A stretch of DNA of 58,519 nucleotides, from NCBI GenBank assembly GCA_038041915.1, contig JBBTFH010000110.1, positions 1 through 58,519 on the forward strand, given 5' to 3'. Source of the DNA: Myxococcota bacterium. GTDB taxonomy: Bacteria > Myxococcota_A > Polyangia > JBBTFH01. The notes under the pieces were generated by a model. That model was given only the letters and a program-made list of their open reading frames with translations, had not been told where the DNA came from and did no database searches. A program made the translations under genes and the position numbers. Every line of letters begins with the position of its first letter. Positions within the stretch are counted from its first letter, which is position 1. This document shows, in pieces, positions 23,215 through 30,688 of this stretch.

Positions 23215-23234
23215 ACCCCGGCCCCGCATTCCTA

Positions 23235-23280
23235 CGGAGCCATCGGCCGGATTTGAACCGGCGACCTGCGGTTTAGGAAA
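23235..23280. repeat. Distal att repeat (tRNA-Thr 3' fragment, copy 1)
   Basis: cggagccatcggccggatttgaaccggcgacctgcggttta is identical to 30614-30654. One mismatch follows at 23276 (the middle anticodon base), then gaaa matches. There is no tRNA 5' half. Confidence 0.9.
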
Positions 23281-24177: not shown

Positions 24178-24840
24178 CTACCTCCGACCGCGGCGCACCG
24201 CCTGCCTCCGCCTTGCCGAGCGCATCGGCCCGCCCGGCGCCCCACTTCTTCGCGAGGTGCGCGTCGTTCTCGCACGCCCACTACTCGCATGTGGACGCAG
24301 CCGAGCAGCAGGCCGCGGTGGGGCGCGTCGGCCAACTTCTCGGCGGCCAACTTGGGAATCCACTTGTGAATCCCAAGTCGCCGTTTCCGGCCAACAACAA
24401 AAAACAAGCGTGATTCCCGGAGCCATCGGCCGGATTTGAACCGGCGACCTGCGGTTTACGAAGGCGAATCCGCCTTCGTGATCGCGGGCAGTTGGGCAGT
24501 CGTGACGGGCACTTATCGTTGCCGAACGTCGCCAGCCGTCTCGGCCCGTCACGGCGAAGTGGGGGAAGAGGTGGGGGATCGGGGATCGAAGCGACGTGCC
24601 GGTGCGGAGGTCGTAGACGCAACCAACGACCGGGGCCTCCGCCTTCGCGCGCAGCGCCGCCTTCGCGGCGAACATCCGCTCGACCATGCCGGGGTGCAAC
24701 AGCGCCTCGTGGCAGTCGCCGCACACGTCCGCGCGTACGCGCACGAGCGCCACGTCGTCGCCCTCGCGCACGACCCGCTCGACCTCGCGATCCGCTTCCA
24801 ACGTTCCACCGCACAGCGGGCACTTCGACGGCGTGCTCAT
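24178..24840 (-). CDS. YgiT-type zinc-finger protein (MqsA-N-like); only the first ~75 aa are recognisable, and the ORF then runs through att copy 2
   Basis: It begins MSTPSKCPLCGGTLEADREVERVV..GDDVALVRVRADVCGDCHEALL, a CxxC...CxxC YgiT zinc ribbon. The reading frame has no stop until 24178 and crosses 24462-24418, so the C-terminus is probably not native. Confidence 0.5.
   Translation of the reverse strand: MSTPSKCPLCGGTLEADREVERVVREGDDVALVRVRADVCGDCHEALLHPGMVERMFAAKAALRAKAEAPVVGCVYDLRTGTSLRSPIPHLFPHFAVTGRDGWRRSATISARHDCPTARDHEGGFAFVNRRSPVQIRPMAPGITLVFCCWPETATWDSQVDSQVGRREVGRRAPPRPAARLRPHASSGRARTTRTSRRSGAPGGPMRSARRRQAVRRGRR
24273..24413 (+). pseudogene. Tyrosine-integrase C-terminal remnant (copy 2)
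   Basis: The translation HAHYSHVDAAEQQAAVGRV... matches the catalytic-Tyr region (..HYSHV..) of the remnant at 30352-30609. It ends 5 nt before att copy 2. No upstream integrase body is present. Confidence 0.6.
24418..24462. repeat. Internal att repeat (tRNA-Thr 3' fragment, copy 2)
   Basis: These 45 bp are identical to 30614-30658, which runs from the anticodon loop to the discriminator base plus 3 nt. Similarity ends abruptly at 24463. Confidence 0.92.
24552..24581. repeat. 30-bp copy of the integrase-tail segment
   Basis: cggcgaagtgggggaagaggtgggggatcg versus 30540-30569 cggcgaagtgggggatcaggtgggggatcg, with 2 mismatches. The tRNA-proximal copy encodes ..GEVGDQVGDR.. of the integrase remnant. 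Confidence 0.7.
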
Positions 24841-24989
24841 CGTTTCACCCTTCGCCGGAAGTCCGGCGACCATTTCGCCGGGTCCGGCCGGTAGCTCGTG
24901 ACAAGGATAGCACTTCCCGACGGCGCGTCGTACGCCCAGACCGCGTGGATCGGCCGGCCCGGTGTCGCCCGCGAATCAAGCAGCGAGCC

Positions 24990-25262
24990 TTATCGTCGGC
25001 GTCCTGATTCCGGGTTCCACGCGACGGCGGCGATCACGATCCGTCTTTCACTCTCGATCCAGTAGGTGACCCAGAAGTCCCCGAACGAGCAACCGAGCGT
25101 CCCAGGGAGATAGGGGAATGGAAGGAACGACTTCATGCCACCGTCCGCGTGCGGGTTCGCGCAGAGGAGCGAGATCGAACGATAGAATGCGTCCCTGTCG
25201 GGCTTGTTCAGCGCGACGACGAACGACTCGGCCAGCGGGGACAAGTCAACATCAAAGATCAC
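24990..25262 (-). CDS. RelE/ParE-superfamily-like toxin (90 aa)
   Basis: The size and the C-terminal pattern FWVTYWIESERRIVIAAVAW resemble ParE/RelE toxins. The upstream small ORF overlaps by 11 nt. Confidence 0.45.
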   Translation of the reverse strand: MIFDVDLSPLAESFVVALNKPDRDAFYRSISLLCANPHADGGMKSFLPFPYLPGTLGCSFGDFWVTYWIESERRIVIAAVAWNPESGRRR

Positions 25263-25422
25263 CGAGCCGTCTCTTTACGTCTTCAAGTCTTCGGCGGCCA
25301 CCTTCGGCCAACTCCAACTGCCCGCGGATCGTTGACGCGACGAGTTCGGCGTCCCCTGCCATTCTCTGGCCCAAGGTGGCGCCGGTGAGGGGCAGTTCCA
25401 CGAGCATTGGCCAACCCATCAT
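25252..25422 (-). CDS. Putative small antitoxin (56 aa)
   Basis: This is the C-terminal part of track ORF 25252..25623 (MMGWPMLVELPL...LEDVKRRLGDL). It overlaps the start of the RelE/ParE-like gene. The call rests on position only. Confidence 0.3.
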   Translation of the reverse strand: MMGWPMLVELPLTGATLGQRMAGDAELVASTIRGQLELAEGGRRRLEDVKRRLGDL

Positions 25423-25567
25423 CTCGGCGGTCGGGGTTCCCGCCGTGGCCGGCGCAACTGCGAACGCAGCCCCGGCAACCTGCGTCAACTGGTACGCCGA
25501 CGCCAAGCCGTCGGTAGTTCCGGTCCACGACGGCGCCCTCGCTTCCGTGCCAACGGCTCTCATGGAA

Positions 25568-26611
25568 CTAATCATAGCTCCCGTCCCGGGCGGGAAGCCA
25601 GCCCTCAAACAGGACCCTCTCAATTACTTGATCCATCGCAGCCGCAACACCAGCCTGGGGCATCGGTACGCGCAAGATCTCTCTTTGGGTCACGAACACG
25701 TGTTGCGTCAGCACGTTGCCGTCGAGCGACTCAATCGCGGCCCTCTCGTATCGTTTCTCCGCTCTTGGGGCTGACCCGAGATCCAGCGCGGGGCTTGGCG
25801 GTCGAGTGAGCTGGAACCAGTCACGATACTCGACATAAAGATCCCACAGAATCTGCTCTTGGTTCGCCGTGGGTTTCCGCAGCGGCAGCTTGAGGTCCGT
25901 CTTTGCCTCCTCGCGCCCGATCAAGTAGCCGTGGGATGGAACGCCACGCGTCAGACTGTGGACCACCTTTCGGACGTGAGATGCGTCGCGGTCGTGAACT
26001 CGCATGACCTTCGAAGCGAGAGCAGCGTTCTGCTTTCGCGCCCGGAAAACGGCGCCGAGCGCGAGGGGGTGAACGTGGGACGCTAGCAGCTTCAGCACCT
26101 CGATCATGTGCGCTTCGGACTTGATGCCCGCCTCCTCGCGGGCGAGATCGAGAAAACCGATCATATCCTCTACGCTGACCGGAAGTCGGGCAGCTCCGCC
26201 CGAGGGGGAGCCTGGCGCAGCCGGGCTGTACGGCGACGACACGGATGGGTCGACGGGGCTGAGCTGGGCATGTCGGCCAAGTAGGAGTTCGTTGGCGCCC
26301 AGCGCGATCAGGGTCCCGCAGCTCAGAGCTCGGAATGGAACCGCAACGACGAGCCGGCCGCAGTACCGCGTTGCCAGGTCCACAAGGCTCCGCCCGGCAA
26401 CGGGATCGCCACCCACCGTGTAGAGAAAGATCGCGAGCCTCTCTTGGTGACCGATGCGTGCTAGGTGTTCCGAAACGAGCGGGATGGCGTCGCCCGCGAT
26501 CATCGTCTCCAACGAAGAGCGATCCCCAGTCACGAAGCAGAGGACTCGCGCCTCTATTGCTTGCTCAAGATCCCGGACCAACTTCTTCCGCTTCTCGACG
26601 CTCATCGTCAT
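25568..26611 (-). CDS. SDH-family Clp-fold serine proteinase (S49/ClpP-crotonase-like, PF01972-type)
   Basis: The sequence VLCFVTGDRSS...LAIFLYTVGGDPVAGRSLVDL...VVAVPFRALSCGTLIALGANELLLGRHAQLSPVDP matches the 'serine dehydrogenase proteinase' pattern, including the nucleophile Ser in ALSCGT. The gene lies 59 bp downstream of the RM gene on the same strand. Confidence 0.7.
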   Translation of the reverse strand: MTMSVEKRKKLVRDLEQAIEARVLCFVTGDRSSLETMIAGDAIPLVSEHLARIGHQERLAIFLYTVGGDPVAGRSLVDLATRYCGRLVVAVPFRALSCGTLIALGANELLLGRHAQLSPVDPSVSSPYSPAAPGSPSGGAARLPVSVEDMIGFLDLAREEAGIKSEAHMIEVLKLLASHVHPLALGAVFRARKQNAALASKVMRVHDRDASHVRKVVHSLTRGVPSHGYLIGREEAKTDLKLPLRKPTANQEQILWDLYVEYRDWFQLTRPPSPALDLGSAPRAEKRYERAAIESLDGNVLTQHVFVTQREILRVPMPQAGVAAAMDQVIERVLFEGWLPARDGSYD

Positions 26612-26670
26612 CTACTCTACAGGAATCTCAGCTCGTCGGCGCTTGGAATGCAGGTGCCCGAGACGCTCCA

Positions 26671-29600
26671 TTACTCCCCCGTTTCTTGGTCGGGCCTCTC
26701 CACGTCAGCGCCCACACCGCTGCGGGATTCGGCGATCGAATCGTCGATGGCGCGGCGCTCGTCGGGGGTGACTTCGTAGAGGCGGTAGACGCGGTCGTCG
26801 AGTTCGGACTCGACGGCTTCGATCTGGCGGGCGAGGAGGGCTTTGTCGCGGTCGGAGCGGGCGGTGGCGAGGCGGGCGTAGAGGTCGGCGGCGCGCAGCG
26901 CGAGGGCGCCGAGGCCGTCGAGATCGGGGCGGCTCGCCGGGAGGCGGATCGGGAGCAGGTTGATGAAGCGCGCCTCGCACGAGTACCAGCCGCCGCGGAA
27001 CGGCGCCGAGAAGCCCGGGGGCCGGAGCAGCCATTCGAGGAGCTTGCTGTTCAGCAGCGCGAGGAGCGGCGCGGCGTACTCGGGCCTCGCGGGGAGTAGC
27101 CCGTAGCCGCCGGCGGCGCCGCCGAGGACGTAGAAGCTGCCGTCGCGGTCGATCGAGAACGCATTGCGGTCGGCCATGTCCGCGGTCAGGAGCTTCGGCC
27201 GGGAGACGACGTCGAGCGCCTGGCTCCGCCCGAACTGGTACCAGGCGGCGCCGCGGAAACGTCCGCTCTCGCGCGCGTCGAGCGCCTTCTTGTTGTCGAG
27301 CAAGTAGCGCCACGTCTTCGGGTGGTGCCGCTCGAACTCGCCCGGCGGAATTAGCCCCGCCTCTCCGTCGACGACGGAGTAGGGGAACAGGACCGCCTTG
27401 CGTGGTGCGAGCGGCGCAAAGCGCTTCATCTCGCGGCCCTTCACGATCGGCTTGAGCGGCTCCCGTTCGAGGACGACCTCGCGGTCGAGAGCCTTGGAGC
27501 GCACGCGGACGTGCTTGCCCTCGTCGGCGATGACGTCGAGCACGTAGACGGGGTCGAGGCTGGTCTTGAGTCCCTGGAAGACGCGGGGGCAGATCGCGGG
27601 GTCGCCGAGGAACGGCCCCGAGGCGCGCAGGCGATCTAAGAGCGACCGCAGCGACGCGGGGACGCCCAGATACCAGGGTCCACCATCGAGCGCGTCCCAC
27701 CCGATCTTGTGGCAGTACTTGGGAGGCACGTCCGATCCGCGCCTCATCCGCATGACGTCGGGAGACATCCGGAAGTATTCCACGTGCGGCGTCGCCGCCT
27801 TTCTGAAGAACGAGATGCACGTGTAGGTCGTTGGATCCCCGAAGACCTGTTCGTCGGCGAAATCGAAGACCGCCGCGTATTGGCGGGCCTCGGCGACCAG
27901 CCTGCGCAGCGGTGCACCGTAGGTCGCCTTCCACCAGCCGGTCGGCACGATGAAGCCGAGCCGGCCGCCCTCGCGCAGGATCTCCAGGCTGCGCTCGATG
28001 AAAACGACGTAGATGTCGTAGTTACCCTCGGCGGCGGCGCGGTAGCGCTTCTTGTAGAGCTCGACCTCGACGGGCGCCCACTCGTTGAGCGCTTGCACGC
28101 GGATGTACGGCGGGTTGCCGATGACGGCGTCGAAGCCGCTGCGGCCTCCGTCGGCCTCGGGGCGCATGATCGCGCCGAAGCCGGTTTCGTCGGCGTGCCA
28201 GTCAAAGGCGTTGATACGTCGCTCGTCGCTCTCGGTCCACGCGAGCAGCGGATCGAGATCCTGCGTTTCGAGGAGCGAGTTGCCGCAGCGGAGATTGCGC
28301 GACAGGTCGGGGAGGTACTTCGCCGCCTTGAACAGCTCCAACGATCGCTGAAGCGCGAGCGTCTCTTCGGCCTCGTCTTCGAGGAGCTTGAGATACAGGC
28401 TCATCTGCGCGACCTCGACGGCCTGCGCGTCGATGTCGACGCCGTAGAGGCAGCTCGTCAGGATCTCGCGCTTGCGCTGGAGCGTCAGGCGAAGGTTGCC
28501 GTCCTCGTCGACGTAGCAGGCGCCGCGATGCTTCTTCGCCGGGTCCGCTGCCTGCGCATAGAAGCGGAGGTGCCAGTCGATCAAGAACTGGAAGGCGCCG
28601 AGGAGGAACGAGCCGGAGCCGCACGCCGGGTCGACGATGCGCAGTGCCAGCACCTTCTCGGGCGTGGAGCCCTCGACGAGCGGGCCGATCGTGCGCTCGA
28701 CGATCGCGTCGACGATGTAGCGCGGCGTGTAGAAGACGCCGCCGGCGTGGCGGACCTCCGGCTTCTGCTCGATCTTCGCGCGGTGGCCGCCCTCGGTGAC
28801 GCGCACAACGCTGCCGAGGAACTGCTCGTAGACGGCGCCGAGCATCTCGACGGGCATGGCGTCGAAGCGGTACGCGGACTCGGGGAAGTAGAGGCTCTTG
28901 ATGAGCGCCAGCAGGCCGTCGTCGTCGTCGAACTCGGCCTCGTCGGAGAGCGCGTGCGGCGAATAGAGGCCGCCGTTGAACTGCGGCGCGAGGCGCTCGA
29001 ACAGCTCGATGACGTAGCGATAGAGCCGGCGCTTGCCGCCGTCGCGCTCCCAGCGCTCGACCGTGCGCGCGAGCGTGTGGGTGCGCTCGATGCCGCGATC
29101 TTCGGCGACGCGGGCGAACACGAGGCGATCGATGAAGCGCTGGACGGCCTCGGTCAGCTCGGCGCCATCGCGGAAGGTGTTGCGGCGCGCAAGCTCCTTG
29201 GCGACGTCCTCGCGCCAGCGCGTGAGCGATTCGAGAAAGTCGGCGTCAACGGCCTTGGCGCCGCGCGCTTTGAAGAGATCCCGTTCGAGCTGGCCGCGCT
29301 GCCGTACGTTGGCGGCGAGCGCCTCGGCCAGCAGCTTCTCGATCGAGCCCTCGGCGACGGCGTCGCGCGAGAGCACGTCGAAGAGGAGGTCGGACTGGTC
29401 GGCGTAGGCCTCGCAGGTCAGGCAGAGCCGGTCGACGCGGCCGAGCTTCGGTTTGTCGCGGTGCGGCTTGAAGGCGCCGTGGAATGTGAGCAGCTCCTCG
29501 AAGTCCGTCAGCAGGCCGAGCGGCGCGCGCTGGCTCCAGACGTAGCTCTTGAGCTGGTAGGCCGCGTCGACGTCGTTGGCGATGTCGCGCGCCGGCTGCT

Positions 29601-29904
29601 TCGCCTCGACGTAGAACTTCAGCTCGCCGCCGATGTAGAAGCCGTAGTCGGGGCGCTGGCGGTTGCCGCGCCCGGCGCGATCCTCGACGATGACCTCGCG
29701 GCCCTTGCCGACGCGGCGCTGTCCTTCCTTCACGAGCCAGCCGAGCGCCTCGAAGAACGGGTCGATGAACCCCGCGCGCACCTTGGCCTCGTCGTAGCGG
29801 CGGGGGTCCTTGAACACGGACTTGCCCTTCTCGAACTCGGAGACGAGCTTCGCGATCGTGTCCTTCGCCCCCTCGCGGCTCGACGGTGTCGACGGGTTGT
29901 GCAT
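26671..29904 (-). CDS. Type IIG restriction-modification enzyme (fused PD-(D/E)xK nuclease, gamma-class N6-adenine methyltransferase and specificity domain; Eco57I/MmeI-like)
   Basis: The N-terminal nuclease motif is RPDYGFY...LKFYVEAKQP. The SAM-binding motif is IVDPACGSGSFLLGAF. The catalytic motif is VIGNPPYIRVQ. A long C-terminal region serves target recognition. The 1077-aa frame is uninterrupted. Confidence 0.88.
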   Translation of the reverse strand: MHNPSTPSSREGAKDTIAKLVSEFEKGKSVFKDPRRYDEAKVRAGFIDPFFEALGWLVKEGQRRVGKGREVIVEDRAGRGNRQRPDYGFYIGGELKFYVEAKQPARDIANDVDAAYQLKSYVWSQRAPLGLLTDFEELLTFHGAFKPHRDKPKLGRVDRLCLTCEAYADQSDLLFDVLSRDAVAEGSIEKLLAEALAANVRQRGQLERDLFKARGAKAVDADFLESLTRWREDVAKELARRNTFRDGAELTEAVQRFIDRLVFARVAEDRGIERTHTLARTVERWERDGGKRRLYRYVIELFERLAPQFNGGLYSPHALSDEAEFDDDDGLLALIKSLYFPESAYRFDAMPVEMLGAVYEQFLGSVVRVTEGGHRAKIEQKPEVRHAGGVFYTPRYIVDAIVERTIGPLVEGSTPEKVLALRIVDPACGSGSFLLGAFQFLIDWHLRFYAQAADPAKKHRGACYVDEDGNLRLTLQRKREILTSCLYGVDIDAQAVEVAQMSLYLKLLEDEAEETLALQRSLELFKAAKYLPDLSRNLRCGNSLLETQDLDPLLAWTESDERRINAFDWHADETGFGAIMRPEADGGRSGFDAVIGNPPYIRVQALNEWAPVEVELYKKRYRAAAEGNYDIYVVFIERSLEILREGGRLGFIVPTGWWKATYGAPLRRLVAEARQYAAVFDFADEQVFGDPTTYTCISFFRKAATPHVEYFRMSPDVMRMRRGSDVPPKYCHKIGWDALDGGPWYLGVPASLRSLLDRLRASGPFLGDPAICPRVFQGLKTSLDPVYVLDVIADEGKHVRVRSKALDREVVLEREPLKPIVKGREMKRFAPLAPRKAVLFPYSVVDGEAGLIPPGEFERHHPKTWRYLLDNKKALDARESGRFRGAAWYQFGRSQALDVVSRPKLLTADMADRNAFSIDRDGSFYVLGGAAGGYGLLPARPEYAAPLLALLNSKLLEWLLRPPGFSAPFRGGWYSCEARFINLLPIRLPASRPDLDGLGALALRAADLYARLATARSDRDKALLARQIEAVESELDDRVYRLYEVTPDERRAIDDSIAESRSGVGADVERPDQETGE

Positions 29905-29906
29905 CG

Positions 29907-30239
29907 CTACTCGTCGATCGGAGCGAGGTGGTAGATCGGCCGGAGCGGCAAGAGGCGCCGTGCGGCCTCATCGAGCTTGCCGTAGTTCTCGGTCCAGAGT
30001 TCGACCAGGCGCTCCAGATCGACGAGTGTGATCTGCCGCTGCTCGCGGTGGCGCGCGAACGTCTCGGCGTCCTTCGTGAAGCCGGACGGGTACGTCGCAC
30101 GCTCGTACTGCGTCGGCGCCACGACCTCCGCGAGGGCGACAAGCGTGTCCTTTGCTTGCATGCCGTCGGGATGCGCCATGAGGATCTCGAACAGCTTCCG
30201 CAGGAACTCGCCCGTCCGACGACGCGTGATCTCAGCCAT
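29907..30239 (-). CDS. Mrr-like protein lacking the catalytic core (Mrr_N winged helix joined to the extreme C-terminal tail)
   Basis: The N-terminus reads MAEITRRRTGEFLRKLFEILMAHPDGMQAKDTL..., resembling an Mrr N-terminal wHTH. The end reads ITLVDLERLVELWTENYGKLDEAARRLLPLRPIYHLAP, resembling the tail that follows Mrr_cat domains. At 110 aa there is no room for a nuclease domain. The stop lies 2 nt before the RM start. Confidence 0.5.
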   Translation of the reverse strand: MAEITRRRTGEFLRKLFEILMAHPDGMQAKDTLVALAEVVAPTQYERATYPSGFTKDAETFARHREQRQITLVDLERLVELWTENYGKLDEAARRLLPLRPIYHLAPIDE

Positions 30240-30310
30240 GCCGGTCCTCCACGACGGCGCCGCCGCGCCGGCCGCCGGACGATAGCCAACAGCGCGCCGC
30301 GAGGGAAGGA

Positions 30311-30350
30311 CGAGGGTCCGAGGGTCCGAGGGTCCGAGGGTTCGAGCGAG
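30311..30350. repeat. 8-bp tandem repeat (cgagggtc x3 perfect plus 2 degenerate units)
   Basis: The units are cgagggtc cgagggtc cgagggtc cgagggtt cgagcgag. The array lies between the Mrr-like gene start and the integrase remnant. Confidence 0.9.
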
Positions 30351-30351
30351 G

Positions 30352-30609
30352 AGTCGTGCTTGGAGTCGGCTACTCGCGGCGGAGCTGACGTTCAACAACC
30401 TCGCGCAGCAGGTCACGTCGGGCGAGGTCGTCCGCGCGATCACGGGGCACGTCACGGCCGCGATGACCGAGCACTACTCGCACGTGGACGCGGGCGAAAA
30501 ACACGCGGCCGTGGTGCGCGTTCTGCGCCTCGTTCACGCCGGCGAAGTGGGGGATCAGGTGGGGGATCGCGTCGAGGAGCCGAGAGCCGCGGGAGCGAAA
30601 GCCGAATGA
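30352..30609 (+). pseudogene. Tyrosine-integrase C-terminal remnant (copy 1, frameshifted and truncated)
   Basis: The frame ending at TGA 30607-09 reads ..LTFNNLAQQVTSGEVVRAITGHVTAAMTEHYSHVDAGEKHAAVVRVL.., the box II / catalytic Tyr region. The expected RR(S/T)F motif just upstream is in another frame (tcg cgg cgg agc TGA). There is no N-terminal or core-binding part. Confidence 0.7.
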
Positions 30610-30616
30610 TCCTCGG

Positions 30617-30688
30617 AGCCATCGGCCGGATTTGAACCGGCGACCTGCGGTTTACGAAACCGCTGCTCTACCCCTGAGCTACGATGGC
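30617..30688 (-). tRNA. tRNA-Thr (anticodon CGT)
   Basis: The reverse complement folds as a perfect cloverleaf: GCCATCG TA GCTC AGGGGTA GAGC A GCGGT TTCGTAA ACCGC AGGTC GCCGG TTCAAAT CCGGC CGATGGC T. It is 72 nt long and the CCA tail is not fully encoded (CCG). Confidence 0.93.

Follow-up and report, generated by a model that had tools for sequence, protein, structure and literature searches.

How antitoxins are broken down and what sets type II toxins free has long been debated, and the matter is usually linked with Lon and ClpXP, two proteases of the host. In toxin-antitoxin-chaperone (TAC) systems, for example HigBA-SecB(TA), a SecB-like chaperone serves the antitoxin through an extra C-terminal antitoxin segment, and several toxin families occur. 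TAC systems are mentioned in PMC13069673. A three-component toxin-antitoxin (TA) system with a protease was predicted by Makarova, Wolf and Koonin in 2009 (PMC2701414), who found COG2856 (the ImmA/IrrE Zn-protease) together with Xre and RelE or PIN proteins. In that work the COG2856 protein, a HEXXH metalloprotease often fused to a helix-turn-helix (HTH) protein, was proposed to cleave the antitoxin or repressor; ClpP or serine proteases have no occurrence in its text. We analysed a stretch of 58,519 nt, contig JBBTFH010000110.1 of the Myxococcota assembly GCA_038041915.1 (hereafter the window), in which a type IIG restriction-modification (RM) gene, the gene of an SDH-family protease with a ClpP-like fold and two small open reading frames (ORFs) follow one another on the minus strand. 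With a probability of roughly 0.6, we read this locus as two independent modules lying side by side in a decayed island at a tRNA-Thr gene: the IIG enzyme, and a foreign three-gene cassette of ~1.7 kb (24990-26611) made up of protease, antitoxin-like protein and toxin. That such cassettes form a distinct, self-sufficient class of tripartite toxin-antitoxin-protease or abortive-infection systems, with a portable antitoxin N-domain and varied toxins, in both bacteria and archaea, is a serious proposal that we place slightly short of even odds.

The cassette shares features with each of the systems closest to it. Like the type II TA systems RelBE, ParDE and YefM-YoeB (and MazEF for the sister cassettes), it has a small predicted toxin with the RelE/ParE fold or, at sister loci, a Pfam match to PemK/MazF, preceded by a small protein with a C-terminal part specific to the toxin class; the genes overlap, and the loci lie in mobile or defence islands. 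It differs from them in that the small protein carries, instead of a recognizable DNA-binding domain, a conserved N-terminal domain common to the toxin classes, in that a ClpP-fold protease is the constant third member, and in a toxin family that has no Pfam or NCBIfam model. With TAC systems it has in common a third protein that would be dedicated to the antitoxin via an extra segment, and several toxin families. The third protein, however, is a serine protease where TAC systems have a SecB-like chaperone, the extra segment lies at the N-terminus, and its expected effect would be destabilization or cleavage of the antitoxin rather than stabilization. As in the COG2856-Xre-toxin arrangement, a protease gene accompanies an antitoxin-like protein and toxins that can be exchanged, there RelE or PIN, but the only protease families found here are ClpP-fold serine proteases, and the partner has no HTH by Pfam or NCBIfam.

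A fourth relative is FS_HP_SDH_sah, which is reportedly a two-gene anti-phage system from the work of Fillol-Salom et al. 2022. Compared by name and description only, it resembles the cassette in that a mobile element carries an SDH_sah (PF01972) protease together with a hypothetical protein of small size, and differs in having two genes and no toxin where the window cassette has three genes. FS_HP_SDH_sah stands as a DefenseFinder system name in PMC13532340, and the view of a preliminary description of this DNA, that the protease family had not been described as a defence component, is thereby dated. Among the papers that we could search, none described this cassette or a TA operon to which a ClpP-fold protease regularly belongs.

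The reading of the three genes as a unit is based on the conservation of the trio, on its tight or overlapping junctions, on a toxin slot whose occupant is exchanged, on an antitoxin built of two parts and on a protease with a kept catalytic Ser and candidate Asp and His. Loci carrying the protease were taken from Pfam-annotated metagenome contigs (seven look-ups), from species-representative genomes (26 loci) and from metagenomes (80 loci). The relatives collected were 33-58% identical to the window protease over nearly the full length; the closest ones were 50-58% identical, those derived from genomes coming mostly from metagenome-assembled genomes (MAGs) of Chloroflexota. The loci examined belong to Chloroflexota, Thermodesulfobacteriota, Nitrospirota and Pseudomonadota and lie mostly in mobile or defence islands, and more distant protease relatives occur in archaea. 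At E<=1e-30, a profile search of 1.84 billion representatives gave 577 clusters (50% identity) of this long-form protease family. The order of protease, small ORF and third gene was held in the annotated contigs as well as in the ORF analysis of the 26 genome and 80 metagenome loci. Homologues of the window small protein, roughly 105-125 aa in length, follow the protease in ~75 loci; in each of the annotated contigs the next gene encodes such a protein of ~111-123 aa, to which Pfam assigns no family. Within the own subfamily of the window protease nearly every locus with enough sequence has a toxin gene. The 11-nt overlap between the antitoxin and toxin genes of the window is also present at two other loci (L001 and L062). 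The preliminary description had not recognized the two small ORFs downstream as the true partners of the protease.

The third gene of the window belongs to a family of 93-aa proteins. An AlphaFold2 (AF2) model of this family reached a mean predicted local distance difference test (pLDDT) of 92.1, with strands and helices in the order beta-alpha-alpha-beta-beta-beta-beta. The top Foldseek matches in the PDB were RelE (2khe, 9g12, 3g5o, 4fxe), YoeB, YafQ and ParE, with template modelling (TM) scores of 0.65-0.75 and E values down to 5e-5. Judged by the predicted structure, the 93-aa family, including the window protein, has the RelE/ParE fold. The family had no match in Pfam, NCBIfam or PHROG, and a sequence-profile search of the PDB returned chance-level matches only. 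Across the loci with enough sequence, the third gene was a MazF/PemK protein at 47, a more distant MazF/PemK protein at eight, a member of the 93-aa family at 16 (the window included) and a member of a 103-aa family at four. In the annotated contigs it was usually PemK/MazF and otherwise the 93-aa protein. On the protease tree the toxin classes were clustered, and at least 5 changes of class were needed, compared with a minimum of 3 and a mean of 20 after shuffling; with 5 changes against a minimum of 3, one toxin class must have given way to another on a few occasions. The 103-aa family (VPRYEIQLPLKFNDG...) fills the toxin slot of four cassettes (L016:1953-2264, L017:7745-8056, L129 and L131). 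It also lacked a match in Pfam, NCBIfam and PHROG, and is a candidate for a new toxin family.

The small protein between protease and toxin consists of a conserved N-terminal block (TTDGLASAYQLTQV...) and a C-terminal block specific to the toxin class (...RGQLELAEGGRRRLEDVKRRLGDL). The N-terminal motif common to the small proteins is T-[TD]-[AD]-G-L-[AT]-S-[AG]-Y-Q-x-T. When small proteins of the MazF class were compared with those of the RelE-fold class, the N-blocks were on average 40% identical and the C-blocks 13%; inside one class, the corresponding values were 49-53% and 42-43%. Those of the MazF class end in an acidic, Trp-containing tail (...AEExLPxALExWPxWEE), reminiscent of the MazE tail, and one of them gave a faint match to a Staphylococcus-type MazE (E=0.05). 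Those of the RelE-fold class end in ...RGLADLEQGRYxxLEEVKRRxGDL. Two loci, L147 (4500-5285) and L148 (3936-5303), have this RelE-fold toxin and this antitoxin C-block but no protease, and the C-block is joined there to unrelated N-terminal domains; at the second, a 222-aa gene of unknown kind precedes the toxin pair. The small protein matched nothing in Pfam, NCBIfam or PHROG, and the Pfam and NCBIfam scans detected no recognizable DNA-binding domain (ribbon-helix-helix, AbrB, Phd or HTH) in it. A C-terminal half that follows the toxin class, joined to a constant N-terminal half, is the pattern expected if the C-block neutralizes the toxin and the N-block goes with the protease. We infer from these sequence comparisons that the small protein is a chimeric antitoxin whose N-domain would face the protease.

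The protease itself, which in the database gene call starts at Met3 and has 345 aa, scored 36.3 bits against Pfam PF01972 (SDH_protease; gathering threshold 31.3), with only residues 59-126 aligned. Its score against the NCBIfam equivalog NF047768 was 53 bits, far under the cut-off of 250, and a PADLOC scan of the protein gave no match. The nucleophile serine noted in the preliminary description is indeed retained: Ser97 (RALS97CGT) aligns with the catalytic serine of ClpP (AASMG). Among 80 distinct protease sequences, S97 and H227 were invariant (80/80), and D121 and H206 were each present in 79. At 98 highly conserved columns, the window protease differs at eight, mostly by conservative substitutions. 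Its AF2 model (pLDDT 80.7) matched ClpP structures of the PDB in Foldseek with a probability of 1.00 and TMt values of 0.54-0.65; according to this model, the protease has a ClpP/crotonase-like fold, to which a helical region and a C-terminal three-strand sheet (residues 283-342) are added.

The ClpP fold and the decayed integrative element around the gene would also suit a leftover prophage head-maturation (prohead) protease, an origin that the preliminary description had allowed for, and faint matches to models of such proteases were obtained (NF045542, 15.7 bits; phrog_1684, 18.5 bits). The cut-off for NF045542 is 120, and against phrog_11747, whose function is unknown, the protease scored 115 bits. 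No phage homologue was found by tblastn against 50,697 phage genomes, and a pattern scan of IMG/VR gave no relative. Capsid, portal and terminase genes are absent from the island. The relatives of the protease lie in operons with toxin genes and none was seen in a head module, and its best viral structural matches (BFVD) were proteins named 'serine dehydrogenase proteinase' of giant viruses. We consider a head-maturation origin hardly credible.

If the cassette is a TA system with its own protease, the C-terminal half of the small protein would bind and neutralize the toxin, as in type II TA pairs, and the conserved N-terminal half would be a handle or cleavage site for the protease. The protease could then set the lifetime of the antitoxin constitutively, which would make the module addictive in any host, independently of Lon and ClpXP. 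Alternatively, it might act after a trigger such as phage infection, and abortive infection would follow. Transcription reading through from the RM gene into the cassette over the 59-nt spacer between them is possible and would not be needed.

Several points weigh against this interpretation. The link between protease and small protein is one of co-conservation. The AF2 model of the protease is poor at residues 122-148, beside Asp121, the candidate Asp of the putative triad. A scan of the island detected no promoter for the cassette. The window toxin ends in ...WNPESGRRR* where the family consensus has ...WNPKSPRYPLDI (...SPRYPLDI), and it has Arg at a position that is Tyr or His in the consensus, as L136 does; with its altered C-terminus, this copy of the toxin may be weakened. 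Finally, a relative of the protease in Escherichia coli, which is 33% identical over the full length and is present in 47 of 5426 complete genomes, overlaps an unannotated ORF of 59 aa and has no toxin gene beside it. Named 'SDH family Clp fold serine proteinase' by the annotation pipeline PGAP, this relative (L145, NZ_CP081704.1, 2229-3396) is a moron of a lambdoid element or prophage, flanked by the genes for the Q antiterminator and the holin, and shows that the protease can work in a two-gene form.

Such two-gene relatives suggest the main rival to the TA interpretation. According to it, a two-gene unit like FS_HP_SDH_sah has the protease as its own effector or sensor and the small protein as inhibitor or bait of the protease, and the toxin is an exchangeable add-on; the released protease would cut phage or host targets. 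Beyond the E. coli prophage gene and the DefenseFinder system named after a hypothetical protein and an SDH_sah protease, a distant subfamily of ~398-aa proteases (L025-L030; 30-35% identical) is in keeping with it. At four of these six loci (L026, L028, L029 and L030) the protease gene is followed by an ORF of 71-85 aa, three of which (L026, L028 and L030) share the motif [LV]-x-G-[RL]-W-N, and no third gene of a recognized toxin family was detected at the six loci. This subfamily may be a two-gene form. The near-constant toxin gene in the own subfamily of the window protease speaks against a mere add-on, and so does the C-terminal half of the small protein, since its tracking of the toxin class is an antitoxin signature. 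We therefore regard the protease as effector or sensor as unlikely, with perhaps a small chance of being right.

The RM gene upstream encodes an intact single-chain enzyme that matched the PADLOC model PDLC03604 for type IIG enzymes with E=1.6e-198, residues 13-1049 corresponding to positions 6-1000 of the 1011 of the model. The match to this curated model thus covers the full length, including the C-terminal specificity region, where TaqI_C alone is weak (13.6 bits). In Pfam, it matched Eco57I (5.3e-40), N6_Mtase (3.7e-15) and HSDR_N (26.0 bits, cut-off 25.1). All motifs named in the preliminary description were found. An N-terminal PD-(D/E)xK nuclease in the same polypeptide is marked by PDYGF at residue 85 and VEAK at residue 99 (P85-D86 ... 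E100-A-K102), and a gamma-class N6-adenine methyltransferase by motif I (xDPACGSG; DPACGSGSF at 425) and motif IV (NPPY at 597). The PDB relatives of the methyltransferase core are CamA, TaqI, BseCI and BsaXI. Compared with type IIG enzymes in general, the 1077-aa protein is a regular member in which we noticed nothing unusual, and by its sequence it is an ordinary type IIG enzyme and a module independent of the cassette. Another type IIG-like enzyme is found in this genome (G000, contig C162:2932-4125; open frame of 1066 aa), with a methyltransferase core 48% identical to that of the window enzyme.

The preliminary description had raised the idea that this enzyme and the protease might be a fixed pair, in which the protease would add a further layer of defence or regulate the RM enzyme. 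The arrangement it reported was accurate: both genes are intact and lie on the minus strand with a gap of 59 nt, and a terminator between them is not predicted, as would suit a single functional system. The association was, however, not conserved from either side. Searching 114 protease loci with the RM enzyme by tblastn gave no orthologue and only two distant IIG-like genes, one 25% identical and ~4 kb upstream (L075), the other 21% identical and on the other strand (L016); in the neighbourhood check that the preliminary description had asked for, the orthologue of the window's own RM enzyme stood beside none of ~110 protease loci. Conversely, in 400 genomes of the same phylum we examined 14 loci that encode relatives of the RM enzyme (32-48% identity), and none of them had the protease or the small protein in the 1.5 kb on either side. 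Non-orthologous IIG or type III RM genes do lie within ~6 kb of the cassette at four other loci (L062, L075, L016 and L143) among the 45 whose flanks were long enough, which could be counted in favour of a functional link, but these neighbours represent different models: between them, the enzymes of L062, L075 and L016 match the PADLOC IIG models 03596, 03606 and 03630, and that of the window matches 03604. At L062, an Eco57I-like and an Mrr_cat gene are divergent from the cassette, and the Eco57I-like gene has only the methyltransferase motif region in common with the window enzyme. Codon usage also differs between the window RM gene and the protease, which has its own constant downstream partners. 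One functional system of RM enzyme and protease is thus very improbable, and the sequence comparisons support the fallback of the preliminary description, that the two are unrelated neighbours.

A PADLOC scan of 199 flanking ORFs from the 45 loci (~362 kb) found IIG and type III RM, a PD-T4-6-like kinase, MADS, AriA, SspH and NsnB, and several candidate systems as well. Other contigs with the cassette carry integrases, transposases and further TA pairs. The cassette thus tends to sit in mobile or defence islands, so that an RM gene sometimes adjoins it without being its partner. The coordinates of the window features are collected in table 1.

Table 1. Features of the island and its borders, in window coordinates.
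Feature	Coordinates	Strand	Evidence or remark
MqsA/YgiT-like zinc-ribbon ORF, reading across att copy 2	24178..24840	-	PF15731 MqsA_antitoxin, E=0.0027, below cut-off
att (attachment site) copy 2, duplicate of the 3' part of tRNA-Thr; left end of the ~6.1-kb island	24411..24462	.	repeat family D1
50 open codons in frame after the toxin TAA; downstream edge of the cassette	24840..24989	-	no Pfam match
Predicted toxin, 90 aa, RelE/ParE-superfamily fold; GTG start, 11-nt overlap with the end of gene 2 (cassette gene 3)	24990..25262	-	AF2 and Foldseek
Antitoxin-like protein, 103 aa; its ATG lies 4 nt past the protease stop (cassette gene 2)	25252..25563	-	homology to ORFs that follow the protease
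Long-form SDH/ClpP-fold serine protease, 347 aa (cassette gene 1)	25568..26611	-	PF01972, AF2/Foldseek, conserved residues
Spacer from RM stop to protease start, 59 nt; upstream edge of the lower-GC cassette	26612..26670	-	GC 59.3%
Type IIG RM enzyme, single chain, intact, 1077 aa	26671..29904	-	PADLOC, Pfam, motifs
Mrr-like remnant, directly upstream of the RM gene	29907..30455	-	PF04471 Mrr_cat, weak C-terminal match, E=0.024
tRNA-Thr(CGT), integration site; right end of the island, overlapping D1 copy 3	30615..30688	-	ARAGORN

The window lies in a MAG that is 83% complete and consists of 318 contigs. Three copies of the repeat D1, the 3' part of tRNA-Thr (23228-23279, 24411-24462 and 30607-30658), delimit two tandem decayed islands; the one with the RM gene and the cassette has lost its integrase. 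Further direct repeats lie beside the att copies (24279-24328 versus 30472-30521, 80%; 24552-24581 versus 30540-30569, 93%), and suggest that the tandem islands once had related end sequences, possibly the ends of integrase genes. On the minus strand, the ~6.1-kb island reads Mrr-like remnant, RM gene, cassette, 50 open codons and MqsA/YgiT-like ORF. In its C-terminal part, the Mrr-like remnant shares 29% identity with the corresponding end of an Mrr_cat protein at L062 (2647-3663), which also adjoins an IIG-like gene and a protease cassette. A terminator scan of the island found a single terminator-like site, inside the RM gene, and a simple scan of the 59-nt spacer found no sigma-70-like promoter and no terminator.

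Base composition sets the cassette apart from its surroundings. The window has ~70% G+C overall and the island 67.1%, with 68.6% in the RM gene and 62.5% in the protease gene. Taken together with the 59-nt spacer upstream, the cassette has 62.8%, compared with ~68.5% on both sides. The low G+C content of the protease gene had been pointed out before, and we likewise counted 29/60 for positions 25801-25860; the lowest-GC stretch of 500 nt in the island begins at 25543. G+C at third codon positions (GC3) was 0.92 in the RM gene, compared with 0.73, 0.71 and 0.77 in the genes of protease, small protein and toxin, respectively. The best homologue of the protease in the 400 genomes of its own phylum was merely 31% identical. 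Given this lower G+C and the lack of a close homologue in the phylum, the cassette appears to be an insertion of its own and of foreign origin. In the tree of proteases, that of the window has a long terminal branch (0.8) and is placed by no well-supported subclade; its nearest rows by path are one of the MazF class and several of the RelE-fold class.

At the downstream edge, the last residues of the toxin (its last 5 codons) are changed, which places the junction inside the end of the toxin gene. The 50 open codons beyond it, the last of which overlaps the start of the next ORF in ATGA style, are probably the 3' remainder of an older (toxin) gene that lost its front part through arrival of the cassette or through a deletion. 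A tentative DUF4258-like label for this remnant was unconfirmed by Pfam and was dropped. The MqsA/YgiT-like ORF that follows is probably the orphaned antitoxin of an older pair.

These signs of decay raise the question whether the cassette in this genome is a relic without current function, which would be compatible with our reading of it as a TA-protease module. The loss of the integrase from the island, the replacement of the toxin C-terminus at the junction with the older gene remnant, the long branch of the protease and a GC3 that has not been raised to host level would all fit a decaying copy. The three frames are nevertheless open, protease and toxin retain every residue that is invariant in their families, the eight deviating columns of the protease are mostly conservative changes, and the 11-nt overlap between antitoxin and toxin genes is preserved. 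On balance, a relic is quite unlikely.

The operon-like arrangement of restriction enzyme and protease thus appears to consist of separate island passengers, and there is no protease-linked RM system to claim. If our interpretation of the cassette is right, a cassette with its own protease and an antitoxin recognition domain would be a compact, host-independent system for testing antitoxin degradation. Tripartite TA logic, so far represented by the chaperone-linked and the predicted metalloprotease-linked systems, would also gain a third kind.

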